DNA of 64,000 nt, from positions 1 to 64,000 of IMG/VR virus record IMGVR_UViG_3300036715_002161; one strand, written 5' to 3'. Source of the stretch: a virus. Positions 40,003-54,377 of the stretch are shown here, piece by piece. The notes under the pieces were generated by a model. It did no database searches. It was not told the DNA's origin and saw only the letters and a program-made list of their open reading frames with translations. How positions within the stretch are numbered: the first letter of the stretch is position 1; every line of letters begins with the position of its first letter. A program made the position numbers and the translations under genes.

Positions 40003-40605
40003 TTAGGACCTTTCCATATCTCTTGCAGTCTCTTGCCATGGCGCTCGGCCTTCACACATTTTGATGAACATCGCTTTTTGAGCTTCTTCCTCAGTATCCC
40101 TATCAGAAGCCCATAGAGTAGCCTGCTCTGCTGCTTGTGGAGCATACTTCGAAGTAACCCAGACAGCAGCGCGAGAAGCATCCCATTCATCGGCGTTCTG
40201 TGCAGCGCGAGCTGCATCCCTAGCAGCAACCCACGCATCAGTTAAGTCCATATCTGTAGCCCTTCCATTGGCGTATAACGTTGCTATGTCCAGAGCTATT
40301 AAGCTATGTGGACTAGTCATCAAGTGTTGTACCCTTCTAGCACACCAAACAGCAAATAGACGTGCGTCTCTTTCTATACCTGGGATACAGCGGAGCGCCC
40401 ATAATGCGTTATCTAGACAGTTACTATGTACTATTGAAGACAGTAGTATATCTCCCTTATGTGCGTAACGTATATAGGATTTTCTAATGGAATCTTTGCA
40501 GGTGAAGGGGAGTCCCTGAAGGCTTCTAACTACCTTGTTATAACTTTCAAAATAGGCTCCTTTTTTACGTAGATCGGAAAGGGTTACTGTAATAGGATAG
40601 TTCAT
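40003..40605 (-). CDS. Ala-rich helical phage protein, paralog of 43814..44395
   Basis: ALWAL..RLFAVWCARRVQHLMT..AA repeats..MCEGRAPWQ. Confidence 0.7.
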   Translation of the reverse strand: MNYPITVTLSDLRKKGAYFESYNKVVRSLQGLPFTCKDSIRKSYIRYAHKGDILLSSIVHSNCLDNALWALRCIPGIERDARLFAVWCARRVQHLMTSPHSLIALDIATLYANGRATDMDLTDAWVAARDAARAAQNADEWDASRAAVWVTSKYAPQAAEQATLWASDRDTEEEAQKAMFIKMCEGRAPWQETARDMERS

Positions 40606-40624: not shown

Positions 40625-40645
40625 CTGGTTATCTCTACGTTAGAC
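40625..40645 (+). mobile_element. attC-like right half-site
   Basis: GGTTATCTCTAC-GTTAGAC resembles the L'-R' arm of the site at 51360. Confidence 0.5.
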
Positions 40646-40647
40646 TC

Positions 40648-40923
40648 CTAAACCAGCGAGTATCCGTCCTCAAAAGCTTTTGCTGGTGAATATGACTGAT
40701 ACCCGTCCTCATATACAACATAGTAGCCGCCCACATCAGGACTGTGCTTTTGCATATATTCATGCGGCACACGAAACGGTTCATACCTCGTGTTGGCTGG
40801 GTGAATCATCATGCTGCCGTCACTCTCATTTCCTGGTTGAGTCGGGTCAACCATGTTGTAAATTTTCAGCGCCCACACTTCCTTGTGGCATCTGTACTTT
40901 GGCATTTCTAAGCTTGCATTCAT
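40648..40923 (-). CDS. Conserved phage protein (GYYVVYEDGY.SYSP..FE.GY type)
   Basis: Motif recognition; AAGGA RBS. Confidence 0.65.
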   Translation of the reverse strand: MNASLEMPKYRCHKEVWALKIYNMVDPTQPGNESDGSMMIHPANTRYEPFRVPHEYMQKHSPDVGGYYVVYEDGYQSYSPAKAFEDGYSLV

Positions 40924-40960
40924 GGTATTTCCTTTGTTGCGCCACACTTCAAGGGCAGTG

Positions 40961-41022
40961 GGCTAACCCTACGTTCGAGCGGACGCTGGTAAAGCGTCAT
41001 GCCCCTCAACTACACGTTATGG
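40961..41022 (+). mobile_element. attC-like site, 62 bp
   Basis: GGCTAAC-CCTAC-GTTCGAG...CTCAAC-TACAC-GTTATGG. Confidence 0.85.
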
Positions 41023-41262
41023 CACACGAACCACTACGCGCCACTTGAATATAAAAAATCCACGCATCTCTACGTGCCCGATCTTTCCTTTTACCATTTC
41101 GTTAAAGCTTTCTACGGTCATCCATCCGTCTATGTCCGTCTTGATCGCCTTGGCTGCTTGAGATACATCCAAGATAATTACTTCTGATAATCCCCATCCG
41201 CAGCGATGGAATAGACATACGTCGCCTTTCTTGTATGCCACTTGTGCTGTTTCGAGTTTCAT
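41017..41262 (-). CDS. Hypothetical cassette protein
   Basis: Stop codon lies in the R' box of the attC at 40961. Confidence 0.6.
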   Translation of the reverse strand: MKLETAQVAYKKGDVCLFHRCGWGLSEVIILDVSQAAKAIKTDIDGWMTVESFNEMVKGKIGHVEMRGFFIFKWRVVVRVP

Positions 41263-41263
41263 T

Positions 41264-41521
41264 TCAATCCCCCTCTATGGTTGTTAAGTTAATTTGGAAA
41301 TACTCAGCCAGCTCGGACCTATTTCTCATTACACTAAAGTAGGTACTGCCAATATTACAATCTTCAGGTTTGGGATAATCGGGGAACTCACCGTCCCAGT
41401 TAACCACGGCTATCTCTGTGCGCCACTGCAAAGCCTGCCCATCAGTCTTGAATAATCGCAGTAGCGTGCAGTACTTAGTAATCCACTGTGCTACTACTAC
41501 GCTTTGCTGTTCTTCACTCAT
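41264..41521 (-). CDS. Hypothetical protein, paralog of 47600..47854
   Basis: MSEEQQSVV..QWRTEIAV.NW..EFPD..AEYFQ..EGD. Confidence 0.65.
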   Translation of the reverse strand: MSEEQQSVVVAQWITKYCTLLRLFKTDGQALQWRTEIAVVNWDGEFPDYPKPEDCNIGSTYFSVMRNRSELAEYFQINLTTIEGD

Positions 41522-41522
41522 G

Positions 41523-41747
41523 TCAGCTTTCCTTTGTTACCGCCGAAAAGAACCTGTCGCCTTTACCTGTAGGCTGTACAGTCATTGGGTCAAATCCCAT
41601 CTTCTCGCCAAGTTTGGCCCAGGCTGCATTTGCGTTTTCCTGAACGCTACGCACCGTGGCACATTGGAGCGCGATCATCGGTACTGGCCTCATTGCGTCA
41701 AACAGCGCAGTAAGATCATCGGCTGTCATTTCATAGTTTGTCCGCAT
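41523..41747 (-). CDS. Conserved small phage protein
   Basis: QENANAAWAKLGEKMGFD; AAGGA RBS. Confidence 0.65.
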   Translation of the reverse strand: MRTNYEMTADDLTALFDAMRPVPMIALQCATVRSVQENANAAWAKLGEKMGFDPMTVQPTGKGDRFFSAVTKES

Positions 41748-41759
41748 TTCGTTTCCTTT

Positions 41760-42086
41760 TCAAATTGCTCGTGTCTTCAAAACCTCGCCTGCTTCAAGTA
41801 ATGCAGCAGGATCGTATGCTATACCCACGGACCCATCAGCCCTGCGAATGACCAGTCTAGCGAAAAGGTTGGCAATTTTTCTGAGTCGCTCAATCTCGGC
41901 TGCCTCATCTCGCAAAGTGAGAAGGTCTGCAATCGCATTGGAGTACTTGTTAATGGCATTGACGGCATCATTGTGGTGTACCCCAAACATATCACCGTCG
42001 TCAAAGGCGAAGGCTATCTTTGCTAACTTCTCCGCATCTTTCAGTGCGGCTATCGCCCTGTTAATTACTTCGTTCTTTGTGTCCAT
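41760..42086 (-). CDS. Hypothetical protein
   Basis: GGAG RBS directly beside an attC. Confidence 0.6.
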   Translation of the reverse strand: MDTKNEVINRAIAALKDAEKLAKIAFAFDDGDMFGVHHNDAVNAINKYSNAIADLLTLRDEAAEIERLRKIANLFARLVIRRADGSVGIAYDPAALLEAGEVLKTRAI

Positions 42087-42096
42087 ATTTTCTCCG

Positions 42097-42150
42097 ATTT
42101 AACCTGGCAGTCTAGCTGACCCTTACAAGTTGCTCACTTTTGCGTTAGGC
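42097..42150 (+). mobile_element. attC-like site, 54 bp
   Basis: ATTTAAC-CTGGC-AGTCTAGC...GCTCACT-TTTGC-GTTAGGC. Confidence 0.75.
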
Positions 42151-42405
42151 CAACTCAAATACATGGAATATTAGGTAGCCTCCGTGAATCCCATAGGTTC
42201 CCACGTACTCGCCCGGACCGTCATGTATTAGATTGCCTGTGCCGTAGGTGGCAAAGTTGCGGGGCACGATAGGTTCCATCTCATCCACTAAAGCCCACAG
42301 TTGTGGTATGCCGTCTTGTGCTTGCACCTTAAGTAGCTTCGCACCCTTGTGGATGTGTAGGGTTTGCAAGTCAGTAACTGTCAGCGTCCATTTCAAAATT
42401 TTCAT
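42145..42405 (-). CDS. Conserved small phage protein
   Basis: MKILKWTL..GAKLL.VQ.Q..LWA.VD..GTG..YVGT..FHVFE; stop lies in attC R'. Confidence 0.7.
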   Translation of the reverse strand: MKILKWTLTVTDLQTLHIHKGAKLLKVQAQDGIPQLWALVDEMEPIVPRNFATYGTGNLIHDGPGEYVGTYGIHGGYLIFHVFELA

Positions 42406-42454
42406 GTTCTCTCCAAGGTTATGCGGGCCATTACTAATATAAATAGAGAGTATC

Positions 42455-42846
42455 TCTCTACTATTGTTATACCAAAATAAGTGTACTTTGACTAAAAAAA
42501 ATAAAGGACCTGGTAAGGTCACCCTTATTTAAAAAACAGCGCTCTGAATTGAGCGCTGCTGTTGTTACATAGCTCCGACCGTGTGGTCATCAAACACCTC
42601 TGATAGACTGGTCTTCAGATACTGTTCTACCTTGTAACACCCATAGGCCGTGATAGAAAGCCCCAGTATACTCAGATAGGTGTCATAGTTGGACTTAAGG
42701 TGATCCAAGACCTTAGATGTAAAACTTGCTTCTTTGGCAGGTGCATTCATTTGTAATACTCCTTATATTATATTTGGACAAACGGTATGTTTTATCCTAC
42801 TATTGTTATACCAAAATAAGTGTACTTTGACTAAAAAAATAAAGGG
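42455..42846 (-). repeat. Promoter-ORF-terminator-promoter module, copy 2
   Basis: Matches 13186-13648; two copies of the TAGTCA-N17-TATAAC promoter; terminator at 42531-42558. Confidence 0.9.
42565..42750 (-). CDS. Small membrane protein, paralog of 13282..13581
   Basis: FTSKVLDHLKSN..DDHTVGAM. Confidence 0.7.
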   Translation of the reverse strand: MNAPAKEASFTSKVLDHLKSNYDTYLSILGLSITAYGCYKVEQYLKTSLSEVFDDHTVGAM

Positions 42847-42895
42847 CCTAGAGTAGTGACCAAGGTTTTACTTGGTAAGGTCTACCACTATTTAA

Positions 42896-42941
42896 AAACC
42901 CTGACCCGCAAAAGCTTCATCCGGTTAACTCTATGTTATGT
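42896..42941 (+). mobile_element. Truncated attC-like site
   Basis: CCGCAAAAGC..ATCCGGTTAACTCTAT-GTTATGT matches the centre and right arm of the site at 51360; R'' missing. Confidence 0.6.
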
Positions 42942-43202
42942 GTCACTTGGTACGTTGGTTATTTCAGCATTATAGCGAGTATTCCATCGCTCTATTGCCT
43001 GCTCTTTGTCACGCCCGATCCGTTCGATCATCCGGCTTGGGCCAGGGGCTTCAGCGCACCAATGCCGCACCGAAACGCTGACCGGGTCGCTATACCTCAT
43101 GCCAACCCAGACTCTCCCGTTGTCTTTGAATTCGGTTATACCGCCGGGACAAAACGGGCACGGTAGCAACCGCTTCAAATCTTCATCCTTAGCTTCTATC
43201 AT
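42936..43202 (-). CDS. Lar-like (restriction alleviation family) Zn protein
   Basis: LLPCPFCPG...AIERWNTR. Confidence 0.6.
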   Translation of the reverse strand: MIEAKDEDLKRLLPCPFCPGGITEFKDNGRVWVGMRYSDPVSVSVRHWCAEAPGPSRMIERIGRDKEQAIERWNTRYNAEITNVPSDT

Positions 43203-43357
43203 TTCAGCCTCCTATCATCTGTCTGCACCTCTTGCAGTCTCTTGCCACAGTGCATTTTATTATCCGATGGTGTGCCCTCGCTTATGTCAAAAAGGTTTCC
43301 GCATCCGGTAACCCAAAAGCCATTATTGTCTTCAACCCAGTTACACTGTTCACTCAT
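43199..43357 (-). CDS. Small Zn-ribbon protein
   Basis: CNWVEDN..WVTGCGN; paralog of the next ORF. Confidence 0.55.
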   Translation of the reverse strand: MSEQCNWVEDNNGFWVTGCGNLFDISEGTPSDNKMHCGKRLQEVQTDDRRLK

Positions 43358-43539
43358 TTCAATTGTTCCTTTGTTAGAAGGCTCTCGCCACAGTATGGGC
43401 ATACACGTGAGTGCCTCTCTGACCGGTTTCCCCTGACGAACCCAAAGCAGTTTCCGCAGGTGCTAACCCAAAAACCTTCTCCGTCGTTGTCTTCGACCCA
43501 TGTATATGTTTTGTCTTCATGCAGTAGTGTATCCATCAT
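43354..43539 (-). CDS. Small Zn-ribbon protein
   Basis: WVEDN..WVSTCGNC..CPYCG; AAGGAG RBS. Confidence 0.6.
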   Translation of the reverse strand: MMDTLLHEDKTYTWVEDNDGEGFWVSTCGNCFGFVRGNRSERHSRVCPYCGESLLTKEQLK

Positions 43540-43547
43540 TTCTCCTT

Positions 43548-43583
43548 TTCAAAGTGCCTCACTTCAAAGGTAGGCGGTTAACC
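43548..43583 (-). repeat. Dispersed 36-bp leader element B
   Basis: TTYAAAGTGCCKCACTTYAARGGTAGGCGGYTAACC; other copies at 48990-49025, 49338-49373, 49615-49651, diverged 40939-40968, partial 47375-47390. Confidence 0.85.
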
Positions 43584-43817
43584 TTAGCCACCTATGCGCC
43601 GGTACTCCATGCATACAGTATCTGTGACCGTCTGCATGGTTGCTATCTTCCCTATATACATTGGCTGTATATGTGTGCGATACACAGGATTCACGCATTC
43701 CCAGTCGCCTTTCTTAAGTTCAAATGTTGGCTGATTGATTTCTTTCCATAAGCCAACACTAACAACAGCAAAGATGCCTGTTAAGATAACTACTATAATC
43801 CATTCCATACGATTCAT
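43584..43817 (-). CDS. Small membrane-anchored protein
   Basis: N-terminal TM segment; GAGGAG RBS; ATGA coupling. Confidence 0.6.
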   Translation of the reverse strand: MNRMEWIIVVILTGIFAVVSVGLWKEINQPTFELKKGDWECVNPVYRTHIQPMYIGKIATMQTVTDTVCMEYRRIGG

Positions 43818-44395
43818 ATTTTCTCCTCTGTTTGCCATGGCGCTCGGCCTTCACACATTTTGATGAACATCGATTTCTGAGCATCTTCCTCAGAAGCTCC
43901 AGTAGCAGCCCTAGCAGCAAACGCAGCAGCCCCCGCAGCAGCCTTAGCAGCCCTAGCAGCAAACGCAGCAGCAAACGCAGCAGTCCCTTCAGTAGTCCAC
44001 GCAGCAGCATTCGCAGCAGTCCACGCAGCAGCCAATTCAGAATCCGTAGCCTCTCCATTGGCATAGCGCTCAGCTACGTCTGGCGCGGCTATGCTGCGTG
44101 GATCAGTCATCAAGTGTTGCACCCTCCTAGCACACCAAACAGCAAATAGGCGGGAGTCCCTTTCTGTACCTGGAATACATAGGAGAGCCCACAGGGCATC
44201 ACCCAGGCAATTACTAGAGACTATGGAAGCCAACGGTAGAGGCCCCCTATGTTCGTAGCTGATGTAGTATTCTCGGGTGGAATCCAGGCTGGTGAACGGG
44301 AGTCCCTGAAGGCTTCTAACTACCTTGTTATATCCATTAAAGCAGGCTCTTTTTTTACTTAGGGAGGAAAGGGTTATTGTTAGCGGGTAGTTCAT
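43814..44395 (-). CDS. Ala-rich helical phage protein, paralog of 40003..40605
   Basis: Shared N- and C-termini. Confidence 0.7.
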   Translation of the reverse strand: MNYPLTITLSSLSKKRACFNGYNKVVRSLQGLPFTSLDSTREYYISYEHRGPLPLASIVSSNCLGDALWALLCIPGTERDSRLFAVWCARRVQHLMTDPRSIAAPDVAERYANGEATDSELAAAWTAANAAAWTTEGTAAFAAAFAARAAKAAAGAAAFAARAATGASEEDAQKSMFIKMCEGRAPWQTEEKI

Positions 44396-44461
44396 AGTGG
44401 TGTTCCTTGAATGTTATCTGGCAGCATCTTGGCGCGTCTTCTGTACCGGGCAATTAACTTA

Positions 44462-44959
44462 TTACTTGGGCGTAGTGTAGAGCGGGAGACAAAAACTCTC
44501 ATTCCAACCATCAGTCGTCTTTGCAAAAGAGTGGTAATGCCAATCTCCTGCATCGTCCACTAGGAATCGAGAATAGCCATAAGGCTTACTCTGTACTTTG
44601 TAGGCGGCAATGCGCTCTTCAAGCACCGCCGCGTAGCCGTCCATGCAACGGGCTTGGTTGCGCAACCGTGACTGTTCGGCTTCCGACAGATCGGCAAACT
44701 GAATCGTATGAAAGAAGGTAGATAACTTTATCAGCTTCTTGTCGAGTTCGGCCTTCTCAGTTAAAACGCGTTTATGGACGTAGGTTTTGAATGCGTCTTC
44801 TGGCCGATGATTGATCTCTTCCATTTGTGCTATTAGTGCTTCTCTGAGTACAATGATGGCTGGACGGCATTTCTTTTCCCATATTCTGTAGTAACTGCCG
44901 CCCAGTATAGATATTTCTTCTAGCGCCTCAAGCGCCAGTTCCATTGCTTTCTTGCTCAT
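44462..44959 (-). CDS. Mosaic protein: MSKKAMELALEALE module plus crAss001_48-like helical domain
   Basis: RVLTEKAELDKKLIKL..F..Q...M..Y..VL.ERI; GGAG RBS. Confidence 0.6.
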   Translation of the reverse strand: MSKKAMELALEALEEISILGGSYYRIWEKKCRPAIIVLREALIAQMEEINHRPEDAFKTYVHKRVLTEKAELDKKLIKLSTFFHTIQFADLSEAEQSRLRNQARCMDGYAAVLEERIAAYKVQSKPYGYSRFLVDDAGDWHYHSFAKTTDGWNESFCLPLYTTPK

Positions 44960-44960
44960 A

Positions 44961-45518
44961 TCAATCTCCATAAGGTAGTCCATCTGTAAGCGCATTGCCA
45001 GCGTTTCCTTGCTGCTCCGGGTTGTTCGGGTTAGGCGACACACCATTAGTATTGAGCACATTTATAGGTATCCCAATGCAGGCATTAACGCAGGCCGCAA
45101 TCCGCTTAGCGTCGGACTCAGAAATTGCGTAGCCGATTTTCTCTCCCGGTGGGCAGACATACCAGCCATCTATATCCTCACCATATCCCCATATCGTGCC
45201 GCCTAACCCTACATTCGAGAGCGACTCCCCAAAAGCGTAGCTCGCCATCGCGGCGCGCAACATTTCAACTTCGGCATTCGAGTCGGACTCACCCTGCTGC
45301 TTGATTGCTTCAACAGTCGAAGCGTGACAACCCATGCGTTCGCAGCCACCTACAAACCCTTCTAATGAGCAGCCATCTTCAAACTCTGGGCCATTATCTT
45401 GTTGAGTGATCGCTTCCTTAAGTGCGGCGATGGCAGCATCACTTTTAGGAATCGCCCGCGTCTGCTCACGGTGATATTCCAGCGCCTCAAGTGCCTGTTC
45501 CATTGCTTTCTTGCTCAT
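44961..45518 (-). CDS. Mosaic protein that reads through an attC-like site
   Basis: MSKKAMEQALEALE start; internal SNAEVE...SLSNVGLG; AKRIAACVNAC. Confidence 0.6.
   Translation of the reverse strand: MSKKAMEQALEALEYHREQTRAIPKSDAAIAALKEAITQQDNGPEFEDGCSLEGFVGGCERMGCHASTVEAIKQQGESDSNAEVEMLRAAMASYAFGESLSNVGLGGTIWGYGEDIDGWYVCPPGEKIGYAISESDAKRIAACVNACIGIPINVLNTNGVSPNPNNPEQQGNAGNALTDGLPYGD
45201..45282 (+). mobile_element. Degenerate attC-like site inside a coding sequence
   Basis: GCCTAACCCTACATTCGAGAG is identical to the left arm of the site at 49876; R' degenerate (ATTCGAG). Confidence 0.65.
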
Positions 45519-45519
45519 T

Positions 45520-45780
45520 TCAATCTCCATAGGGTAGTCCATCCGTAAGTGCGTTGCCAGCGTTAGCCACCTCATTCTCATAATCTGGCGGGTCCACGAA
45601 ATAAAAATTTCTCGGCAAAGGTGCAAGGCCATCAAGTTTTGCAGCAAGCATCCAGAGAAGTTTTTCCCGAACTACAACGCCATCCACTTCAGTAACAAAG
45701 TGGTCGCCCTCTTGCCACACAAATACAGGAAACCTTCCACAGTACGTTAGGTGCAGCGTTATTGCTTCGTTTTTGTTCAT
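45520..45780 (-). CDS. Hypothetical protein
   Basis: GGAG RBS; C-terminal NAGNALTDGLPYGD shared with 44961..45518. Confidence 0.6.
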   Translation of the reverse strand: MNKNEAITLHLTYCGRFPVFVWQEGDHFVTEVDGVVVREKLLWMLAAKLDGLAPLPRNFYFVDPPDYENEVANAGNALTDGLPYGD

Positions 45781-45882
45781 GTTTTACTCCGTTGTTAGCC
45801 GTGGTCGAACTATTCAATCGCCGCCATAGCGAATTTCTTACGAATCGCATCAATACAATCACATGGGGTTGTATCTGGCATC

Positions 45883-46182
45883 TTATCCAACTCTATCACC
45901 TAAGTAGAGTGGGCGGCAAAGAGAGACATTCCAACCCTCAGTTGTCATTGCAATAGAATGTAAACGCCGATAACCTAGATCGTCTAACATGTATCTAGCA
46001 TAGCCGAACGGCTCATCCAGCTGCTTGATCGCTTCTTTGAGTACATCTGTGGCTGTGCATCCATAGAATAGAGCTTCTTGCAGGACCGACATTCCAGCAT
46101 TTGATCCTGAGTGCTTATGTGCTATAGTTGCGTCCCATTTTTCTAAGGCATCAAGCGCCAGTTCCATTGCTTTCTTGCTCAT
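45883..46182 (-). CDS. MSKKAMELAL-module protein
   Basis: Third copy of the N-terminal module; C-terminus resembles 44462..44959. Confidence 0.6.
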   Translation of the reverse strand: MSKKAMELALDALEKWDATIAHKHSGSNAGMSVLQEALFYGCTATDVLKEAIKQLDEPFGYARYMLDDLGYRRLHSIAMTTEGWNVSLCRPLYLGDRVG

Positions 46183-46382
46183 TTCAATCTCCCTGGGGTA
46201 GTATCAATGGTTAGCGCCAACTCTTGCAAGTCTGCCATTACTTCTTTATTCATGGCTATACACCAGGCAGCGAATCTGTAGCGAGTCCAGCGCATAGGTG
46301 CATCGTCGTCAATAATCTGGCACAAAGCCCATGCAATGCGGTCTTTTGTACTTGCGGTTTCTTTGTCGTATGGTATGTACAT
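46179..46382 (-). CDS. Hypothetical protein
   Basis: RBS present; ATGA coupling. Confidence 0.55.
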   Translation of the reverse strand: MYIPYDKETASTKDRIAWALCQIIDDDAPMRWTRYRFAAWCIAMNKEVMADLQELALTIDTTPGRLK

Positions 46383-46407
46383 ATCAATCCCCTTGGTTAT
46401 GGGTTAC

Positions 46408-47076
46408 TTACAGGGTTTCTTTAAAGTGCTTCATTGTAACTGGGCAGACGGCAGTCGCCAGTTCCAGTAAAGCCTCAGCGTACACCCGGATTTCGTACTG
46501 GGCATGTGCATGAAGTCGAAGACGCAAGAAGTGCATGAGGTTGTGTAGGTCGACCGAGGCAAACATATGGCTGTAGGTACCCGTAGTGAGTACTGACCTG
46601 GCTAGCTCTCTTGGACAGCCTTCCCTGATGAGGCTCTGGTATACCTCAAAGCATGAGTTGTTGGCAGCATCGATAGTCAGCTGGAATTTGCTGGCTAATG
46701 GATGTACTTCCTCAGTCCTCATTTGTTTATTGTCCTTGCTTTGCGTGGTTATTTGAGCCAGCTCCGGTACGTAGTACTCTTCTGGTAGCTCTGCGTACCT
46801 AGCACTAACTTCATTGTAGCTCCAGGTGCGGTGGCGGTGCCACTGTCTCAATACGAAGATGGGGGCCTTCACCTCAAAGGTGAACTGCACCGACTCAAAG
46901 GGGCTTGTGTGTTTGTTATTCAGCAGGTACTTGATGAGCTTCTCATCCTTACCCGAATCCTCTCCTGTGCGCCACTCCGCTGCATAGCTTACGCGAGCTG
47001 CCCGCACTATGGATAGATCACTGCCCATACTATCTACTAGCCTGACTAACCCACGGTCCAATACTTTGAATTCCAT
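46408..47076 (-). CDS. thyX: Flavin-dependent thymidylate synthase
   Basis: AARVSY, HTSPFE, RQWHRHRTWSYNEVSARY, ELARSVL, HAQYEIR. Confidence 0.95.
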   Translation of the reverse strand: MEFKVLDRGLVRLVDSMGSDLSIVRAARVSYAAEWRTGEDSGKDEKLIKYLLNNKHTSPFESVQFTFEVKAPIFVLRQWHRHRTWSYNEVSARYAELPEEYYVPELAQITTQSKDNKQMRTEEVHPLASKFQLTIDAANNSCFEVYQSLIREGCPRELARSVLTTGTYSHMFASVDLHNLMHFLRLRLHAHAQYEIRVYAEALLELATAVCPVTMKHFKETL

Positions 47077-47096
47077 TTTAATCTCCTGTAGTTCGT

Positions 47097-47333
47097 TCAC
47101 GTTGGGGCTGTCTCTGATTGGGGAATATCAAGGAATCTCACATGCTCTAAAGGTACATTGCTTATAGTTCCATCTGGCCACTCAACAATTGCAGTTGTGT
47201 AGTTACCCGCACAAGTCGCGAACTCTTCGTAGTTCACGCCGAATTGATGAAACATCGCTTCGCCCTTTTCCTCCAGTCTCCATACACCGCTGGGGAACTG
47301 CTTTTTAAGCTCACTTACCATTACTTTACGCAT
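47097..47333 (-). CDS. Conserved small phage protein
   Basis: FHQFGVNYEEF...GNYTTAIVE..DG. Confidence 0.7.
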   Translation of the reverse strand: MRKVMVSELKKQFPSGVWRLEEKGEAMFHQFGVNYEEFATCAGNYTTAIVEWPDGTISNVPLEHVRFLDIPQSETAPT

Positions 47334-47370
47334 TTCATTTCCTTTCTTTCATCTTGGTGCATATCACGGG

Positions 47371-47598
47371 TTAGGGGTAGGCGGCTAACCTTACTTTGGG
47401 GCGTAGCGGGCACCATTTTGGTATCGCCTGTTTATTATCGTTCCATTTGCGCAGAGCTATACGCTTGTTGTGATGTGCTTTGCATGTCCACTCATCTATT
47501 GACTCGAATACATCCGCTTTGTGGAAGCGTTTGCTCTCATGATTAGGGCACCACCCGCAGTCCGCCACTGTCCTTATAAACTGTACTGTTTCAGTCAT
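47371..47598 (-). CDS. Cys-rich small protein
   Basis: CGWCP..C..IPKWCPL. Confidence 0.6.
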   Translation of the reverse strand: MTETVQFIRTVADCGWCPNHESKRFHKADVFESIDEWTCKAHHNKRIALRKWNDNKQAIPKWCPLRPKVRLAAYP

Positions 47599-47599
47599 T

Positions 47600-47854
47600 T
47601 CAATCCCCCTCCATGGTTGTGAAGAAAGTTTGGAAATACTCGGCCCGCTCAGTCATATTGCTCATTAGATAAAAGTATATGCAGCCAATATCACAATATT
47701 CAGGTTCAGGATCATCAGGGAACTCATCGGCCCAGTTAGCCACGGCTATCTCTGTGCGCCACTGAAAAGCCTGCTCCTTAGTCTTGAACACCCGCACCTC
47801 TGTGCTATCTACTGTTTTGTATAATGCTACTACGCTTTGCTGTTCTTCACTCAT
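47600..47854 (-). CDS. Paralog of 41264..41521
   Basis: Shared motifs. Confidence 0.65.
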   Translation of the reverse strand: MSEEQQSVVALYKTVDSTEVRVFKTKEQAFQWRTEIAVANWADEFPDDPEPEYCDIGCIYFYLMSNMTERAEYFQTFFTTMEGD

Positions 47855-47881
47855 GTCAACTTACCTTTGAACGCTGTGATT

Positions 47882-48073
47882 CTATTCATGCTCGGCCCTG
47901 GCCTCAAGTACCCTGTAGTCCTTACTGTACTGATCGTTTAATTCCCCCCACAGTGGGTCATCTGCTGTGAGTTTGGTAGGCTTATGCGCCCAAATCTCAT
48001 TTGTTATCGCTGCACCCACTATACCTCCCATGACCATTGAGACCGAAGCCAAAAGCAAATCGTGGTTAATCAT
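47882..48073 (-). CDS. Small membrane protein
   Basis: TM segment; GGAG RBS. Confidence 0.5.
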   Translation of the reverse strand: MINHDLLLASVSMVMGGIVGAAITNEIWAHKPTKLTADDPLWGELNDQYSKDYRVLEARAEHE

Positions 48074-48293
48074 TTTCTACTCCGTAACTTGGTGTAAAAC
48101 AAGTTGAACAAACGCAGCACACGCAACATTCAATATCTGGCCGATCATTATCCTCAAAGCTTTTAATGTCTTGCTCAGTATATCCTGCATCTTTCCGGTT
48201 TTTTGCACTCCAGTCACCACTCCCTCCACCCCAATCAGAATCAAGGCGAAAGTGTCCAATTCTTGTGCTTTTACAGTTAGGGCAAATCTGCAT
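48066..48293 (-). CDS. Zn-ribbon protein, paralog of the N-terminus of 51623..52048
   Basis: MQICPNCKSTRIG...RPDIECCVCCVCSTCFTPS. Confidence 0.65.
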   Translation of the reverse strand: MQICPNCKSTRIGHFRLDSDWGGGSGDWSAKNRKDAGYTEQDIKSFEDNDRPDIECCVCCVCSTCFTPSYGVEND

Positions 48294-48540
48294 AACTCTC
48301 TCCTATTAAGCTAGATGGACTGAAGTATTTAATAAGCGAAAACATGGCATCTTTGTCTTGCGACCATTTGCACTTCACAATAACCTGGGTTGTCGTGTTC
48401 TCGCCTTCCTTGGGTCGCAGCACCTTTAACGCTTTTGCCCAGCCATACCTTGGATGGTCTTTGTGCCTGTAGCTTTTGTCAATCACTATGTCTTTTGCTC
48501 TCATCATTTTCTCCGTCCTGTAGCTCAATACTTCAAACAT
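48277..48540 (-). CDS. Hypothetical protein
   Basis: Overlap-coupled ORF. Confidence 0.55.
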   Translation of the reverse strand: MFEVLSYRTEKMMRAKDIVIDKSYRHKDHPRYGWAKALKVLRPKEGENTTTQVIVKCKWSQDKDAMFSLIKYFSPSSLIGESYADLP

Positions 48541-48976
48541 CGCTTTCCTCCACTAAGCCCTGAGGTGTCGGCAGCTTAGTGGTGTCCACTCCGAAGCAAC
48601 TTTGCATGAAGCGTGTAGTCGCTGCGTTGGCCTCGTCGGGCAGTATGCCTTCGTACAGCATATTCATCGCAATCTCGCAGTGCCATCCCCACGCATATTT
48701 GGGGTCATCTCGCATTTCACTCTTCAAGATTTCGAGCGCCGCCTCAATGCGACTTGGTGTCTTGGTGTCGCCATCTAGGCTGCACCGCGCCGGCCATTGA
48801 GAGAACGGTTCGCAGGTGCTGTCAACCCCGCGCAGTTCCATAAAAGCTTTGATTTCTTCAGCCATCGGGGCAGAGTTGTTGGCCGAAGCAGTCAAAGGCT
48901 TGTTACGCATTGTAAGATAGTCGCCGAAGTCTAACAGCACTCCCGCAACAATGTGATCCAGTCGTTCAAGGCTCAT
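48533..48976 (-). CDS. Hypothetical two-module protein
   Basis: IVAGVLLDFGDYLT; YAWGWHCEIAM..FMQSCFGVD. Confidence 0.6.
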   Translation of the reverse strand: MSLERLDHIVAGVLLDFGDYLTMRNKPLTASANNSAPMAEEIKAFMELRGVDSTCEPFSQWPARCSLDGDTKTPSRIEAALEILKSEMRDDPKYAWGWHCEIAMNMLYEGILPDEANAATTRFMQSCFGVDTTKLPTPQGLVEESDV

Positions 48977-49024
48977 AGTTTAATTTCCTTTTAAAGTTCC
49001 GCACTTTGAAGGTAGGCGGCTAAC

Positions 49025-49324
49025 CTACCAAATAGCAACCAACTTTCGTCCGTTTGCTTTGTCGCCATCTATCAGTTCAATCCTAACGCCAGGAACAAAA
49101 GTAATTGCTTCGGCTACATTATCACCTTGCTGCGTAGTTACTTGTACAACACACCCAACACCATCAATCTGCATTGCCTTTGTTGACTTCATCCACCCTT
49201 GCGCCGTGGAGGATGCTTTGCAAATAAGCTGGAATGTATCACCATTGCCAAACACTTTCAAGTCGTTAATATTCGCAGTTGCTCCTTTCACCTCTGTGAT
49301 GTCCATCAATTTAGGTTCTGTCAT
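49025..49324 (-). CDS. Conserved phage protein
   Basis: VFGNGDTFQLICKASS..GWMKSTKAM..GCVVQVTTQ; RBS follows element B. Confidence 0.7.
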   Translation of the reverse strand: MTEPKLMDITEVKGATANINDLKVFGNGDTFQLICKASSTAQGWMKSTKAMQIDGVGCVVQVTTQQGDNVAEAITFVPGVRIELIDGDKANGRKLVAIW

Positions 49325-49417
49325 CTTACTTTCCTCTTTCAAAATGCCGCACTTCAAAGGTAGGCGGTTAACCTCTTGCTCCGTATCAAATACGTTCAAG
49401 CGGATTATGTAGCACTG

Positions 49418-49600
49418 TCATTTCGGCTTAGTGGCGTCTCCGATGTTCTTCATCACACCTTTGAGTGCAGTAGCGGTATGAGGCTCATCCTTATCGGTGA
49501 GTGCTCCTCCCATTGTTATCACGTCAGCGACAATCGCAACAGGTGTTTCGACAACAACACCAATAACTGCCTTGGTCAAATTCTCAAGTAATCCAAACAT
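49418..49600 (-). CDS. Small hydrophobic protein, paralog of 50241..50435
   Basis: MFG.L.NLTKA....TPVA.V.D..T. Confidence 0.65.
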   Translation of the reverse strand: MFGLLENLTKAVIGVVVETPVAIVADVITMGGALTDKDEPHTATALKGVMKNIGDATKPK

Positions 49601-49674
49601 AGTCTATTCATCCTTTTAAAGTGCCTCACTTCAAGGGTAGGAGGCTAAACCATTTTCTCGGTATCTGGTGCATA

Positions 49675-49935
49675 TCACGGGTTAGGCCACTCTGCCACGG
49701 TGGTAACGTCCTTCGATGCTCCGCACCGTATGCACAAATAGCCTGTGGTAGCCCACTTCAACCCGTCGCTGTCTGGTTGCAGGTCTAACATTCCACATGT
49801 GACCGACCATCGGTGCAAACCAAGCCAACAAAGCATCGGCGTGTACCCAACTTTTGCCGCCAACGATTGCTTCTGGCCTAACCCTACATTCGAGAGGGAC
49901 GCTCCTTCAGCAGTTTCATTATTGTTTGAGTTCAT
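49675..49935 (-). CDS. Cassette protein starting inside an attC loop
   Basis: N-terminal SLSNVGLG is encoded by the attC arm; LCWLGLHRW..CIRCG. Confidence 0.6.
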   Translation of the reverse strand: MNSNNNETAEGASLSNVGLGQKQSLAAKVGYTPMLCWLGLHRWSVTCGMLDLQPDSDGLKWATTGYLCIRCGASKDVTTVAEWPNP

Positions 49936-49964
49936 CAGTCGCGCCCCTCAATTCAGCGTTAGCC
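49876..49964 (+). mobile_element. attC-like site, 89 bp
   Basis: GCCTAAC-CCTAC-ATT[C]GAGAGGG[A]CGC...GCGCCCCTCAAT-TCAGC-GTTAGCC. Confidence 0.9.
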
Positions 49965-50203
49965 ACCTCAAACTGAGATCCGTGGTAAACCTCTTTATTC
50001 GTGTAGTCTGAGATTTGCCACATTCCAGACCCTTCGTTAAACCACCACGCTAGATCTGGATAATTATCGTCCGGCTTGCTTAACTGGAATAGCGTCCCAC
50101 CTACTTTCCTTAGGTGCGTAGCTGCGGCACGTCTAGTGGCTAACACTTTGGTCAAGCGGGACTGGCCGTCAGCGGCTTCGGTTGTTTCTTGTGTTTCACT
50201 CAT
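49919..50203 (-). CDS. Cassette protein starting in one attC loop and stopping in the next
   Basis: N-terminal GQSRLTKVLA and C-terminal ANAELRGA are attC-encoded. Confidence 0.65.
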   Translation of the reverse strand: MSETQETTEAADGQSRLTKVLATRRAAATHLRKVGGTLFQLSKPDDNYPDLAWWFNEGSGMWQISDYTNKEVYHGSQFEVANAELRGATDELKQ

Positions 50204-50251
50204 TGCTTATCTCCTGTTGTTGCGGCCAGCCCCTTACCTTCTACGTTATGT
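50138..50251 (+). mobile_element. attC-like site, 114 bp
   Basis: GGCTAAC-ACTTT-GGT[C]AAGCGGG[A]CTGGCCG...CGGCCAGCCCCTTACC-TTCTAC-GTTATGT. Confidence 0.9.
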
Positions 50252-50435
50252 CACTATCTATGGCCTTGTTAACGCTCTTTCCAGCCGCATTAAGTAAGTC
50301 GCCAGTGCGTCCGAATGGGTGGTCATCCTCATGGTCAGCACTTGCGAATAATGTCAATATATCAACTACGAGTGCGACTGGTGTTAATGCCACGGCAACT
50401 GCTGCCTTTGTCAAATTTCTAAGTATTCCAAACAT
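50241..50435 (-). CDS. Small hydrophobic cassette protein
   Basis: Paralog of 49418..49600; stop lies within an attC. Confidence 0.65.
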   Translation of the reverse strand: MFGILRNLTKAAVAVALTPVALVVDILTLFASADHEDDHPFGRTGDLLNAAGKSVNKAIDSDIT

Positions 50436-50454
50436 TTTTCTCTTTCAAAGTTAT

Positions 50455-50472
50455 ACCTAACCCGCGTTAGGT
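50455..50472 (+). mobile_element. Collapsed attC (R''-R' only)
   Basis: Perfect inverted repeat ACCTAAC-CCGC-GTTAGGT. Confidence 0.6.
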
Positions 50473-50921
50473 GCTTCCAAATGCTGAAGCTCCAGATAAA
50501 AACGGTGATACTCGGCAATCCGCTCGACGTCCTTCGGGCGCACGCCCTTTAGTCGGCGAATGTCGCTGTTGTGGCGCAGGTCTGCCATCTTCACCATCAC
50601 TGCGTCAGGATTTGCTTTTACTCGTGCCTTGTAGTCGTCGTATGCCTCGCCATCAACCTTGGTGAGCGCCACGATGCCGGCAATTACGCGCTCGGAAAAA
50701 CCGTTGTAGCGCAGCGTTCCGACGCCATCCTCTACACGCTTAAATGTGTCTTCCACAAGGTCGTGCCCAAGGGCAATACACATCAGTTCCTCGTCGTCGG
50801 TCTTCAAGTAATGCATCACCTTCAGCGGGTGCAGGATGTACGGGTTTCCACCCTTGTCAAACTGGCCGTCATGTCGGTTTGTCGCCAGCACAAGCATTCT
50901 GGAAAGCTGCTCGCCTTTCAT
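50457..50921 (-). CDS. HD-domain protein, small alarmone hydrolase (RelA/SpoT HD)-like
   Basis: H.GQ.DK.G.PYILHP, GHDLVED, ALTK, VKMADLRHN. Confidence 0.85.
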   Translation of the reverse strand: MKGEQLSRMLVLATNRHDGQFDKGGNPYILHPLKVMHYLKTDDEELMCIALGHDLVEDTFKRVEDGVGTLRYNGFSERVIAGIVALTKVDGEAYDDYKARVKANPDAVMVKMADLRHNSDIRRLKGVRPKDVERIAEYHRFYLELQHLEAPNAG

Positions 50922-50953
50922 TTGTCGCCACCTTTCTCTGTAGTTGCCGCCGC

Positions 50954-51005
50954 ACCTAACAAGTCGTTGCAGGCGGCGGCCAGCCCTTTACCCCCTACGT
51001 TAGCG
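50954..51005 (+). mobile_element. attC-like site, 52 bp, apparently hybrid
   Basis: ACCTAAC-AAGTC-GTTGCAG...; right arm CGGCCAGCCCTTTACCCCCTAC-GTTAGCG resembles the site at 50138. Confidence 0.75.
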
Positions 51006-51338
51006 TCCATCATCTTCACGCATGATGTCGCCGTTGAGTTCGATCCGTTTACGGTCAAGCTGGCGGACTGTTTCGATCACATCGCTTGCCCAAAAAACCT
51101 CGGCCTGGGTGTACTTAGTGCCATATTCTCTGTTTATAATCTGAGCCTTGTACTCGGCAGCAAACCAAGACCGCCCAGCAAAGGTATATGCCACGGCAGC
51201 CAACCCGGCGGTAATCGCCAAAAGGAATCCGAGCACCCCAGCCATAGTGCCTATGCCGTCATAGGTTTCTCTGCTGTACCACATCAGTGCTACTGCAATA
51301 ACGCTAGCTGCAATAATTGCTACAAGTATTAAAATCAT
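51000..51338 (-). CDS. Two-TM membrane cassette protein
   Basis: AAGGAG RBS; stop lies in attC R'. Confidence 0.65.
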   Translation of the reverse strand: MILILVAIIAASVIAVALMWYSRETYDGIGTMAGVLGFLLAITAGLAAVAYTFAGRSWFAAEYKAQIINREYGTKYTQAEVFWASDVIETVRQLDRKRIELNGDIMREDDGR

Positions 51339-51359
51339 CTTTATCTCCTTCAAAGTTAT

Positions 51360-51422
51360 GCCTAACCCTACGTTAAACCCGGACTCCGCAAAAGCGCGTA
51401 TCCGATTAACTCTACGTTATGC
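51360..51422 (+). mobile_element. attC-like site, 63 bp
   Basis: GCCTAAC-CCTAC-GTTAAACCCGGA...TCCGATTAAC-TCTAC-GTTATGC. Confidence 0.85.
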
Positions 51423-51626
51423 GTCACTTGGTGTATAATCTGCGTTAGGCGCCTTCCAGTTTTCATAATTAGCTCTTATGCGGTTGCATCGGTGACAATC
51501 GCACATAGCATCGTATGACTCATAGTTGCTAGTTGCTTTCAGGTAGGATATCCACTCGTGAACGGCAGCTAACCCGGCGTTCGAGCGCACGGGCAACGGC
51601 GCGGCTTCTTTTTCAGCTTCGTTCAT
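51417..51626 (-). CDS. Cassette protein starting inside an attC loop
   Basis: LPVRSNAGLA is attC-encoded; CDCHRC. Confidence 0.6.
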   Translation of the reverse strand: MNEAEKEAAPLPVRSNAGLAAVHEWISYLKATSNYESYDAMCDCHRCNRIRANYENWKAPNADYTPSDA

Positions 51627-51671
51627 GGTTTCTCCTCGCGCCGTTCCCCGGCGCTCAACTTTGCGTTAGGC
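51567..51671 (+). mobile_element. attC-like site, 105 bp (clearest example)
   Basis: AGCTAAC-CCGGC-GTT[C]GAGCGC[A]CGGG.AACGGCGCG...CGCGCCGTT.CCCGGCGCTCAAC-TTTGC-GTTAGGC. Confidence 0.93.
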
Positions 51672-52048
51672 ATCACCTCCCACCAAGTCTGTGGAGCGTA
51701 TCTTTCAAGCGGGGAATCGAAGTCCCCCAAGTACAATTTGCCATCGTCGCCCTGCAAAACAGTGTGGTATTGGTCACGGTCATGTGAATTAAACAATGTG
51801 TCCCCTGCCTTGATTTCAGTTCCGTTCTTGTCTTGCATTGCGTCACTTGGTGTAAAACAAGTTGAACATACGCAGCACACGCAACATTCAATATCTGGCC
51901 GCTCGTTATCCTCAAAGCTTTTAACGTCTTGCTCGGTATACCCTGCGTCTTTCCCGTTTTCTGCACCCCAATAACCGCTCCCTCCATAATTATGATTGAT
52001 GCTAAGGCGTCCAATTCTTGTGCTTTTACAGTTAGGGCAAATTTGCAT
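51623..52048 (-). CDS. Chimeric protein: Zn-ribbon module plus YopX-like DKNGTEIKAGD module
   Basis: First half is near-identical to 48066..48293; C-terminal PNAKLSAG is attC-encoded. Confidence 0.65.
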   Translation of the reverse strand: MQICPNCKSTRIGRLSINHNYGGSGYWGAENGKDAGYTEQDVKSFEDNERPDIECCVCCVCSTCFTPSDAMQDKNGTEIKAGDTLFNSHDRDQYHTVLQGDDGKLYLGDFDSPLERYAPQTWWEVMPNAKLSAGERREEKP

Positions 52049-52071
52049 AACTCTCTCCTATTTAACACCGT

Positions 52072-52099
52072 GCCTAACAAATCATTCCAGGCGTTATAC
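52072..52099 (+). mobile_element. Internally deleted attC-like site
   Basis: GCCTAAC-AAATC-ATTCCAGGC-GTTATAC. Confidence 0.6.
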
Positions 52100-52471
52100 C
52101 TTGCCCAAAATATGAGACAGTGCCCAGTATTCTGGGTTGAAAAACGCCGCCACAATCCCCTGCGCTGATCCAATCACTACCACCTGAGTGGTAATAAAAT
52201 AAACAGCTGTTGCAATCCATGCCAAAACTGCGCCTTCGTGTTCCCATTCAGCTTCTGGGTATTTATTATATTCAGTCTTAGCTGGTTTTGTGGTTTTATC
52301 TTTAACAAACCGCATCAAGACAATTGCCAATATCACCATCACGATGTCCGTAACTAAATCAATGCCACCACTTATAGGCGCTTGGTGCAGCAAAACATCC
52401 CACAAATGCTGTGCTGTTGTTCCAAGCTTCTCGGCCAGTTTCTCAATCAGCGCTGTTGTTTTATCGTCCAT
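52094..52471 (-). CDS. Conserved two-TM phage membrane protein
   Basis: IEKLAEKLGTTAQHLW..L..QA...FNPEYWAL; stop lies in R'. Confidence 0.75.
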   Translation of the reverse strand: MDDKTTALIEKLAEKLGTTAQHLWDVLLHQAPISGGIDLVTDIVMVILAIVLMRFVKDKTTKPAKTEYNKYPEAEWEHEGAVLAWIATAVYFITTQVVVIGSAQGIVAAFFNPEYWALSHILGKV

Positions 52472-52579
52472 CTTTATCTCCAGTTAAAAGGTATACAAAT
52501 CATTCTAGGTGACGGGCGAAAATCCGCCATCCTCTGAGTTAATGCTTGTTGCGTATCACGGATTAGCCTTTACAATTTT

Positions 52580-53139: not shown

Positions 53140-53151
53140 GGTCTATGTTTA
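53123..53151 (-). promoter_or_regulatory. Early promoter driving the cassette region
   Basis: TAAACA-N17-TATAAG with an extended TG. Confidence 0.6.
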
Positions 53152-54120: not shown

Positions 54121-54377
54121 AAACTTTCCTTTTAAGTAATTGTAATCCAGAGGCTGGGTATAGTTTTTTGTTATAAGATAAAAAACCATTTTTAAGAACA
54201 GAGGGGGTCATATCTAAATGAACAAATAATCTAGACTCTACCCCTATAACTACTCGGAAATAATCCCAGGCCTCATCCTGCTGATTAAAAATGGCGAAAG
54301 TATTCTTTTTGTATACAAGATCTGGGCTTTGACCTTTATATCCTTTCGGATGGATGGCCGTTTCAACCGTCATAAGA
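54121..54377 (-). ncRNA. Candidate msr/msd-like structured RNA upstream of the RT
   Basis: 10-bp inverted repeat 54186-54195/54285-54294 encloses hairpin 54204-54244; ATCC-GAAA-GGAT hairpin at 54340-54351. Confidence 0.45.

Follow-up and report, generated by a model that had tools for sequence, protein, structure and literature searches.

A recombinase-less cluster of attC sites with reversed cassettes in a large phage, likely of a host-lineage attC type

Why would a phage carry a row of integron-type recombination sites with no integrase in sight, and with every gene among them reading against the sites? The question is raised by the first 64,000 bases (hereafter the window) of the linear, 138,036-bp IMG/VR virus record IMGVR_UViG_3300036715_002161, whose completeness is rated at 78% by CheckV. 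A first-pass annotation, made from the letters alone, had described positions 40,625 to 52,567 of the window as an integron-like array of co-oriented attC sites with inverted genes, and had listed seven complete and seven partial sites. We find it likely that this region is a cluster of attC sites lacking integron integrases (CALIN), of an attC type that belongs to the host lineage, situated in the early/accessory block of a large phage, with its cassettes back to front and a host integrase acting in trans. The region combines attC site structure, membership of a bacterial attC family, a consistent orientation of genes against the sites, a record with no recombinase, and mosaicism in cassette-sized pieces that break at the R' box.

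In the published geometry of attC sites, an unpaired spacer of 5-6 nt is accompanied by extrahelical bases, usually G at position 16 and T at 23/24 with an optional one at 20, and a 6-bp stem separates the first from the last of them (Nivina et al. 2016, PMC5027507). A strict scanner was written from this geometry. After an R'' box ending in AAC and an unpaired spacer of 4-7 nt, it demanded stem segments of 3, 6 and 4 bp set apart by bulges, with one further bulge allowed within the 6 bp, and then a mirror arm ending in GTT. Over the whole record it returned three matches, all on the plus (top) strand, at 49876-49964, 51360-51422 and 51567-51671; 100 dinucleotide shuffles of 40-53 kb gave a mean of 0.11 matches and a maximum of 1. 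As controls, all six matches in the integron of Vibrio phage MK672802 fell on the coding strand of the cassettes, downstream of intIA, and in Tetrasphaera phage TJE1 two matches flanked orf2 and orf3 on the gene strand, with a third inside the terminase gene on the opposite strand, away from the array region.

Two covariance models were then applied. R1 was derived from an alignment of 14 phage sites, two of which come from the window (40961 among them), so its result of 7 sites in the record is partly circular. R2 was built by ourselves from 16 attC sites of three bacterial arrays that abut intI, with no window sequence among them. On both strands of the 138,036-bp record, R2 found six sites, all on the plus strand within 40,961-51,671, and nothing at an expectation value (E) of 1 or below in the remaining ~125 kb. 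The sites are, in other words, recognised by a covariance model from bona fide integrons, though one of our own making, and the covariance-model check proposed by the first-pass annotation comes out in its favour, as does the co-orientation of the sites, every model match being on the plus strand. Its site list fares less well. Among the seven sites listed as complete, R2 confirms 40961, 49876, 50138, 51360 and 51567, leaves 42097 as a marginal case seen by R1 only, and 50954 is matched by neither model; among the seven listed as partial, 45201 is matched by R1 and R2 alike, 50455 and 52072 come up only at E of about 1-2, and 40625, 42896, 49391 and 52491 are fragments recognisable by eye with no model match. 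The picture of a clean array of 14 sites is thus replaced by one of five well-formed sites, one half-decayed, one marginal and about six fragments, with many genes and no intact sites at 42-45 kb and 45-49.8 kb. The array is smaller and more eroded than the first list implied.

The best site, 51360-51422 (+; R'' GCCTAAC, R' GTTATGC), scores 67.8 bits with R2, and the TTA of its R' box is the complement of the TAA stop of open reading frame (ORF) 51417-51626. Site 49876-49964 (+; 47.7 bits with R2, 55.7 with R1) forms 12 of 13 pairs in the strict scan around a variable loop of 36 nt, in which lie the stop of ORF 49919-50203 and the ribosome-binding site (RBS) and start of ORF 49675-49935. At 40961-41022 (+; R'' GGCTAAC, R' GTTATGG; 40.3 bits with R2, 59.4 with R1, of whose training set it is a member), the TTA of R' again corresponds to a TAA stop, that of ORF 41017-41262. 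Site 50138-50251 (+; 37.6 and 38.6 bits with R2 and R1) has a 56-nt variable loop holding the RBS and start codon of ORF 49919-50203, and site 51567-51671 (+; 32.0 and 30.9 bits), with spacers of 5 nt and 13 of 13 pairs, carries in its loop a GAGGAG RBS and the ATGA in which ORFs 51623-52048 and 51417-51626 overlap. Sites 49876, 50138 and 51567 were not used to train R1. The half-decayed site at 45201-45275 (+; 26.9 bits with R2, 31.5 with R1) has an intact left arm and a degenerate right arm with many non-pairs, its R' reads CTTCGGC and lacks the G, and it lies inside the 185-amino-acid (aa) ORF 44961-45518, where its left arm is translated as SLSNVGLG. The marginal site at 42097-42150 (+) is short-stemmed and attC-like, with 17.9 bits in R1 (E 0.0055-0.058) and no R2 match at E <= 1; its R' is GTTAGGC, the TTA of which is the stop of ORF 42145-42405.

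The structure of these sites agrees with attC in each of its parts. The inverse core sites of an attC are R'' RYYYAAC and R' GTTRRRY, complementary in part and with AAC and GTT fixed; the AAC and GTT columns of the R boxes are invariant in all 14 aligned phage sites, the decayed 45201 being the exception. Spacers measure 5/5 nt at 49876 and 51567, 5/6 at 50138 and, at 51360, either 6/6 (scanner) or 5/5 (model). The bulges lie on the AAC-carrying arm of the top strand at 16, optionally 20, and 23/24, with 6 bp from the first to the last. At 51567 the two unpaired top-strand bases named by the first-pass annotation, C51582 and A51589, are found as described; it had given two such bases to 49876 and 50138 as well, where there are three (C, A, A and C, C, A, respectively). 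The scanner reads A, C, C at 51360, and in a lambdoid-type phage contig with 12 sites in 5 kb (L060, encoding YqaJ, DnaB and NinB) six of the eight strict matches have bulges C, x, A and the other two G, x, A. Across the 14-site alignment, 13 of 22 pairs show compensatory changes, and the paired share of cells, 85.8%, falls to 31-44% if partners are slid. Bottom strands of attC sites are reported to fold more stably (Nivina et al. 2016, PMC5027507), and here the bottom (minus) strand folds more stably than the top in four of five sites, with -12.8 against -6.1 kcal/mol at 49876; the bottom-strand DNA fold of 51567 reaches -31.0 kcal/mol (z -5.1).

To which integrons do such sites belong? A 21-nt consensus pattern was scanned over one genome per prokaryotic species and gave 28 loci, 20 of which contain attC sites confirmed by R1, up to 14 per 8 kb. 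Nearly all of the loci lie in genomes of Gallionella, Sideroxydans, Sideroxyarcus, Thiobacillus, Nitrotoga or other proteobacteria. All five such genomes tested encode an integron integrase (TIGR02249, 471-503 bits against a cut-off of 265), and at three loci (L117, L121 and L130) intI adjoins the array in the canonical divergent layout, which sets them apart from the phage arrays, which have neither an intI nor a recognised attI. R1 and R2 score phage and bacterial sites alike, up to 87.8 bits, and the two groups share the bulge pattern and a modal length of 63 nt. Site 51360 is 80-90% identical to attC sites of Gallionella- and Sideroxydans-type integrons, and site 40961 is 80-82% identical to bacterial attC sites. 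In sequence and predicted structure, then, the phage sites are members of a host-lineage attC family used by chromosomal integrons of Gallionella-, Sideroxydans-, Sideroxyarcus-, Thiobacillus- and Nitrotoga-type genomes (loci L105-L140). We found no paper on integrons of Gallionella-type genera.

The attC sites of chromosomal integrons are conserved within lineages (Qi et al. 2023, PMC9892861). Because the attC family is lineage-specific in this sense and is shared with the genomes above, the phage would be expected to infect a betaproteobacterial iron or sulfur oxidiser, and its host is probably one of the Gallionella-, Sideroxydans- or Thiobacillus-type lineages. The four public runs that hold the region, with 78-95% of its sampled words, are microbial-mat and sediment metagenomes.

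No recombinase accompanies the sites. Neither a tyrosine recombinase (PF00589) nor a serine recombinase (PF00239) was found in the 138-kb record, just as the first-pass annotation had seen no integrase in the window, and PF00589 was absent from all 11 phage records searched, two of which are rated 100% complete. On the side that lies upstream in top-strand terms, below 40.6 kb, there are small minus-strand phage ORFs only; attI, which lacks a general model, was not searched for. With 5-6 sites within 10.7 kb, four of them within 1.8 kb, and no PF00589 in 138 kb, the region has the composition of a CALIN, for which two attC sites are the minimum (Qi et al. 2023, PMC9892861), and not that of a complete integron. 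The first-pass annotation had proposed shuffling either by a host IntI or by an integrase encoded elsewhere in the phage genome. For the latter nothing was found in the record, and since the phage sites share a sequence family with attC sites of intI-carrying chromosomal integrons, a host integrase acting in trans appears to be the most economical reading.

The genes of the array run against its sites. Between 37 and 54 kb every RBS-bearing ORF is on the minus strand, and so are all ORFs with Pfam support, which agrees with the bottom-strand genes of the first-pass annotation; it was also right in calling the cargo phage-like, the recognisable products being ThyX, an HD-domain protein, NinX, DUF7352 and a crAss001_48-like protein. 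The canonical cassette layout, which has its ORF on the top strand with attC downstream and is typical of integrons but is no part of what defines an attC, is therefore absent. For a comparison across genomes, we called the longest RBS-bearing ORF on each strand in every gap between adjacent attC sites; an earlier strand call based on G+C at third codon positions had been uninformative at ~50% G+C and was replaced by this one. Six phage contigs were counted (the window, L060, L088, L153, L148 and L046; L149 was dropped as identical to L148). Their gaps gave 0 top-strand, 23 bottom-strand and 11 undecided calls, whereas the bacterial gaps gave 27, 5 and 44 (Fisher's exact test on decided gaps, p = 6e-11), and the five bottom-strand bacterial calls have no Pfam support on either strand. 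Bacterial arrays thus hold mostly top-strand ORFs, and in phage arrays every decided ORF is on the bottom strand. L060 has two bottom-strand genes with Pfam support (a DUF7352 homolog and MT-A70), the L088 record carries a portal gene, and the L153 and L148 records are rated 100% complete, one with terminal repeats. Since the reversal is consistent across several unrelated phages with the same attC family and contrasts with bacteria, it suggests that selection or the mechanism of insertion differs in phages, rather than that pieces of host arrays are passively carried.

Genes and sites are interlocked. In the sense direction each attC precedes an ORF, and the far end of the ORF meets the next site: in a census of 40 phage sites with a long bottom-strand frame upstream, the stop was a TAA complementary to the TTA of R' in 12, lay inside the attC in 20 (eight of them 7 nt in), and just before it in 8. 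ORFs 49919-50203 and 51623-52048 cross an R' box into the neighbouring site. The former (minus strand, 94 aa) has its last 12 residues read from the neighbouring attC. A conserved leader of 38 nt, ending in an R''-like GGTTAACC, occurs at 43547-43584 (+) and in four further copies at 40932, 48989, 49337 and 49614, each copy having an attC or an attC remnant on one side and the RBS of the following gene on the other. This leader was found only in the window's record and in two of the related contigs described below (L020 and L088); the bacterial integron loci do not have it.

Whether cassettes have moved between phages can be asked of relatives. Two 15-nt motif scans of IMG/VR gave 29 and 66 loci with a single match, which by our rough estimate is the chance level, and only five related contigs (L020, L046, L060, L072 and L088); an IMG/VR scan with alignment A2 returned only the L020 contig again, and a metagenome scan with A2 no relative. 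L020 shares 49964-50250 of the window at 90% identity, from one R' to the next, so that site 50138 is conserved together with its ORF, and the neighbours differ. In L088, ORF 40648-40923 (minus strand, 91 aa) is shared together with the attC that precedes it in the sense direction, 40961-41022 (79% aa identity, 88.8% nucleotide identity over 375 nt), and homology ends at the R' GTTATG. Seven homologs of ORF 49919-50203 have a common body up to ...FEVAN, in which the AAC codon for Asn is the crossover triplet of R'; after this Asn their tails diverge into at least four unrelated sequences, three reading ELRG, the translation of an attC arm. Homologs of ORF 51623-52048 cover only the N-terminal 40-50%, so tails could not be compared. 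The cleanest case is that of L046 and L072, related phages with flanks 87-94% identical, between which one cassette has been swapped: the two sequences part just past the R' of the first attC and match again from exactly G|TTAGAATCC of the second. Cassette-sized blocks of homology and this swap, with breaks at R' G|TT, support the gene shuffling that the first-pass annotation had postulated.

The contigs of the four metagenome runs, the only form in which we saw these data, split the array into many short pieces. Both ends of the attC core 51364-51418 (AAC to GTT) are loose in all four, the core 40965-41021 stands in other contexts in three of four, and alternative joints occur at 51415 (three runs) and 51417 (one run). 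The joint from 51427 to 52091 and several others have unknown letters between short sides; they were uninterpretable and were not used. Some joints connect duplicated, paralogous segments of the array. As evidence for exchange, the metagenomic joints are mixed.

The mechanism that we infer, including the enzyme (IntI), its activity at the present day and the reason for the reversal, would run as follows. The recombinogenic bottom strand is the coding strand of the phage genes, and because of this the cassette as defined by the integrase consists of an attC, a short RBS leader and then the ORF, whose stop is often a TAA reverse-complementary to the TTA of the following R' (G|TTA). During infection, the integron integrase of the host, acting in trans, would fold the bottom strand and cut at AA|C, so that cassettes could be exchanged, deleted or inserted between phage genomes and possibly host arrays. 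As a guess at the origin of the reversal, attC units may insert where a TAA-C stop codon gives rise, on the antisense strand, to a core-like GTTA site; another effect of reversal is that the folding strand comes to lie on the non-template strand.

A bolder extension, which we hold to be possible though doubtful, is that phages of integron-bearing bacteria keep their accessory genes as mirror-image cassettes, a distinct, phage-adapted form of the system. Sites would have been seeded at antisense stop-codon core sites, turning each phage gene into a cassette with its attC in front; the recombinogenic strand would probably lie on the lagging-template strand, and a stress-induced host integrase would shuffle phage genes at a high rate during infection. 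A phage cassette captured at the attI of the host would be antisense to the cassette promoter (Pc) and therefore silent. If this extension were true, phages would both make use of host integrases and perhaps supply new cassettes.

Several observations weigh against an exchange of cassettes by a host integrase. Recombination is read from breakpoints in contigs, which cannot show rare excision products. An integrase of the phage's own could lie in the missing part of the record, which is 78% complete. No cargo genes were found in common with the sampled bacterial arrays. The Vibrio-type attC sites of MK672802 are not detected by R1, and R2 detects only one of them, so what R1 models is one family and not attC sites in general. 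ORFs that cross R' boxes or contain translated attC arms could reflect decay as much as use. In L020 and L088 the shared blocks start, on the left, 6-9 nt after G|TT and not exactly there, so that the expectation that breakpoints of relatives would fall at GTT holds for the right break of L046/L072, exactly, and for the right ends of L020 and L088, at R', and does not hold exactly for these left ends. The joints at 51415 and 51417 lead to neighbours that lack attC, and hence are not simple attC x attC products, and many of the alternative joints coincide with conserved RBS/start sequences (CATTTCAATC) instead of attC sites, so that part of the mosaicism has its explanation in homologous recombination or in effects of the assembly graph. 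Finally, eight loci of distant relatives of the backbone (SNF2 helicase 46-49% identical) have no attC site; the array is thus not a lineage trait. About half of the sites in this phage are decayed, and ongoing exchange here is something we infer.

The erosion invites the thought that the hairpins are relics or have been co-opted: attC sites left by past exchange with host arrays, no longer recombined, and retained for what they do as RNA hairpins in a polycistronic early transcript, namely stabilise it, weakly terminate it or couple translation. Such a use would accommodate the decay or collapse of about half of the window's sites, the RBS, start and stop codons in the loops of 49876, 50138 and 51567, the ORFs that translate attC arms, and a sense RNA that carries the more stable, bottom-strand fold; moreover, attC sites are presumed to harbour weak terminators (Qi et al. 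2023, PMC9892861). Yet the bulges, the unpaired spacer and the R boxes have no obvious role in RNA and are nevertheless kept, with compensatory changes in the 14 phage sites and also in the arrays of several phages with no relation to one another; where L046 and L072 differ by a swapped cassette, the break is at G|TT, and a terminator scan flagged no attC except for a weak stem inside 50138. We judge this explanation unlikely. The sites could also act as portable homology, cassettes being shuffled by general or phage-encoded homologous recombination between the 60-nt attC repeats, which at 80-90% identity are similar enough to serve as short homology, and between other short repeats. The many metagenomic joints at RBS/start repeats and paralogous gene segments, and a YqaJ-type exonuclease in L060, speak for such a process, but its breaks would scatter along the attC, and what we see is a right break exactly at G|TT and a left break within or just after the first R' in L046/L072, right ends at R' in L020 and L088, and seven protein tails that diverge after the AAC codon; nor would it give a reason for the conserved, integrase-specific bulges. 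As the main process it seems to us rather improbable.

An assembly chimera, in which a piece of a bacterial integron was joined into a phage contig through repeated attC sites, would account for the many short contigs into which the region breaks in the four runs and for attC cores found in other genomes of the same samples at higher depth. We consider it most improbable: phage-type genes (NinX, ThyX, crAss001_48-like and DUF7352) continue the minus-strand operon on both sides, the orientation is opposite to that of bacterial arrays, no cargo is common with the bacterial loci, the four runs hold most of the sampled words as given above (78-95%), and six other phage contigs share the design. 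A reversed CALIN of the host type, served by a host integrase in trans, remains the reading that we prefer.

Remnants of further sites are scattered through the region. At 42896-42940 (+) a stem, right arm, spacer and R', without R'', can be recognised by eye against 51360, with no model match, and a promoter-like repeat comes next; in run X1 a contig of low depth joins 52490 to 42919 through letters resembling the left half of an attC. At 50954-51003 (+) lies a hybrid, likewise seen by eye with no model match, of a GC-rich hairpin around CCTAACAAGTCGTT with an attC right arm, spacer and R' (GTTAGCG). At 52072-52099 (+; R1 10.8 bits, E 2) an R''-like GCCTAAC and an R'-like GTTATAC stand 14 nt apart with no L stem. 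This site, 50455-50472 in the window and 98-157 in L020 have in common R'- and R''-like boxes a few bases apart, as if the interior of the hairpin had been deleted; hairpin slippage or a side reaction of the integrase may have produced them.

The first-pass annotation had the genes read from phage early promoters. A promoter-like 50-nt repeat lies at 42458-42507 (-), with a second copy at 42797-42846 (94% identity), and its 28-nt core occurs three times in the record at <=1 mismatch (42832, 42493 and 13225, all minus), two copies being in the array. The motif carries an extended -10-like TGGTATAAC and may represent a class of phage promoter. It is missed by a sigma-70 consensus scan, which as a whole stayed at chance level (22 found against 25.7 expected), so that the repeat hints at such promoters and the scan does not. 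A strong terminator was called at 42535-42560 (-) by the terminator scan.

The record around the array is that of a large phage. It encodes pieces of a multisubunit RNA polymerase, and the nearest isolated phage by SNF2 helicase is Salmonella phage Arash (40.6% identity). The G+C content is 47-50% at 37-54 kb against 40-44% elsewhere. A megablast of the array against isolated phage genomes gave no match, the flanking protein 35771-36808 has no relative in IMG/VR, and the window holds no Rfam match at gathering thresholds and no tRNA (ARAGORN). The ThyX gene (46408-47076, -; PF02511, 2.7e-54) lies inside the array with no intact attC adjoining. In all four runs its contig ends at 46391 and 47055-47084, has ~2x the depth of its neighbours and carries 6-10 differences, which suggests that the ThyX module is also present in another, more abundant genome of the same communities.

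Directly upstream of the array in the sense direction, at 53149-54189 (-), lies a gene for a retron-type reverse transcriptase of 346 aa, which matches the NCBIfam St85 retron family (3.3e-56, below the cut-off of the model); readings as part of a diversity-generating retroelement or a group II intron were dropped once NCBIfam grouped it with retron reverse transcriptases. Since a 49% identical homolog in the distant relative L096 sits at a locus without attC, this gene is probably unrelated to the attC sites and part of the phage backbone rather than of the cassette system. Several repeats occur in the window. A 69-nt tandem repeat at 8659-8934 (four copies at 92% identity) contains the word GTTAGCC in each copy; the attC models do not match it, and it is unrelated to attC. 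GCAGCA-type repeats with a 9/12-nt period at 43881-44039 and 40166-40237 fall inside the paralogous ORFs 43814-44395 and 40003-40605 (193-200 aa), in which they would encode Ala-rich stretches of low complexity. Array gene segments are duplicated at 67-95% identity (44918-45005, 45477-45564 and 46141-46228; 41259-41536 and 47595-47869; 48083-48307 and 51841-52062), an N-terminus MSKKAMEQALEALE... is common to three array ORFs, and ORFs 48066-48293 and 51623-52048 share a zinc-ribbon-like N-terminal module.

Integrons are viewed as bacterial devices, and the origin of their cassettes is an open question. A phage attC array tied by sequence to one integron family offers a host prediction for an uncultured phage of 140-180 kb and a concrete pair of enzyme and substrate. 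If host integrases do shuffle phage genes, integron activity enters the arms races of phages and hosts and the mosaicism of phage genomes; if they do not, the arrays still show how deeply the hairpins of attC sites can become embedded in coding sequence and translation signals.

Among known systems, one to compare is that of the reverse-oriented cassettes of chromosomal integrons, which typically encode toxin-antitoxin systems with a promoter of their own; Richard et al. (2024) are said to have treated them. There, as in the phage array, the ORF runs against the top strand of attC and so needs a promoter other than Pc. Those cassettes are a minority scattered among forward ones, whereas the phage array is reversed throughout and would be read from phage promoters, and no toxin-antitoxin families were detected among its ORFs in Pfam-type searches of the window. 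A resemblance of another sort is with the PeSL elements, the "mobile regulatory cassettes" that Arbiol, Comeau and Krisch reportedly described in T4-type phages in 2010. Like the array, the regions with PeSLs are said to hold small accessory genes in a hyperplastic part of the phage genome, with repeated promoter/stem-loop elements marking recombination breakpoints; unlike attC sites, PeSLs are repeats of a promoter and a hairpin that reportedly use homologous recombination, have no R boxes or bulges and are not known to be related to integron sites.

The nearest relatives of the array in kind are phage CALINs that have already been published, so that the belief of the first-pass annotation that this had not been described must be given up for integrase-less attC clusters of phages as such. 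Qi, Rajabal, Ghaly, Tetu and Gillings (Front Microbiol 2023, PMC9892861) found 3 integrons, one In0 and 17 CALINs in 10,705 phage genomes, and IntI1 recombined five of six attC sites from virulent phages, at G|TTRRRY. We did not find the systematic reversal or the match to a host attC type in print: a search for reversed phage cassettes gave nothing, and the main text of Qi et al., as distinct from its supplementary tables S1 and S2, makes no statement on them. Their CALINs resemble the array in having co-oriented attC sites between small ORFs, no integrase, methylase or other accessory cargo, and a phage that is probably virulent (PMC9892861). They differ in that some sites of the window overlap coding sequence and in that its attC type can be assigned to one particular family of bacterial integrons. 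In the published examples there are 2-3 sites, in a layout called typical of bacterial arrays (PMC9892861), and in TJE1 the matches of the array region lie on the gene strand, in the forward sense, whereas in the window and six phage contigs of the related family every decided cassette is reversed.

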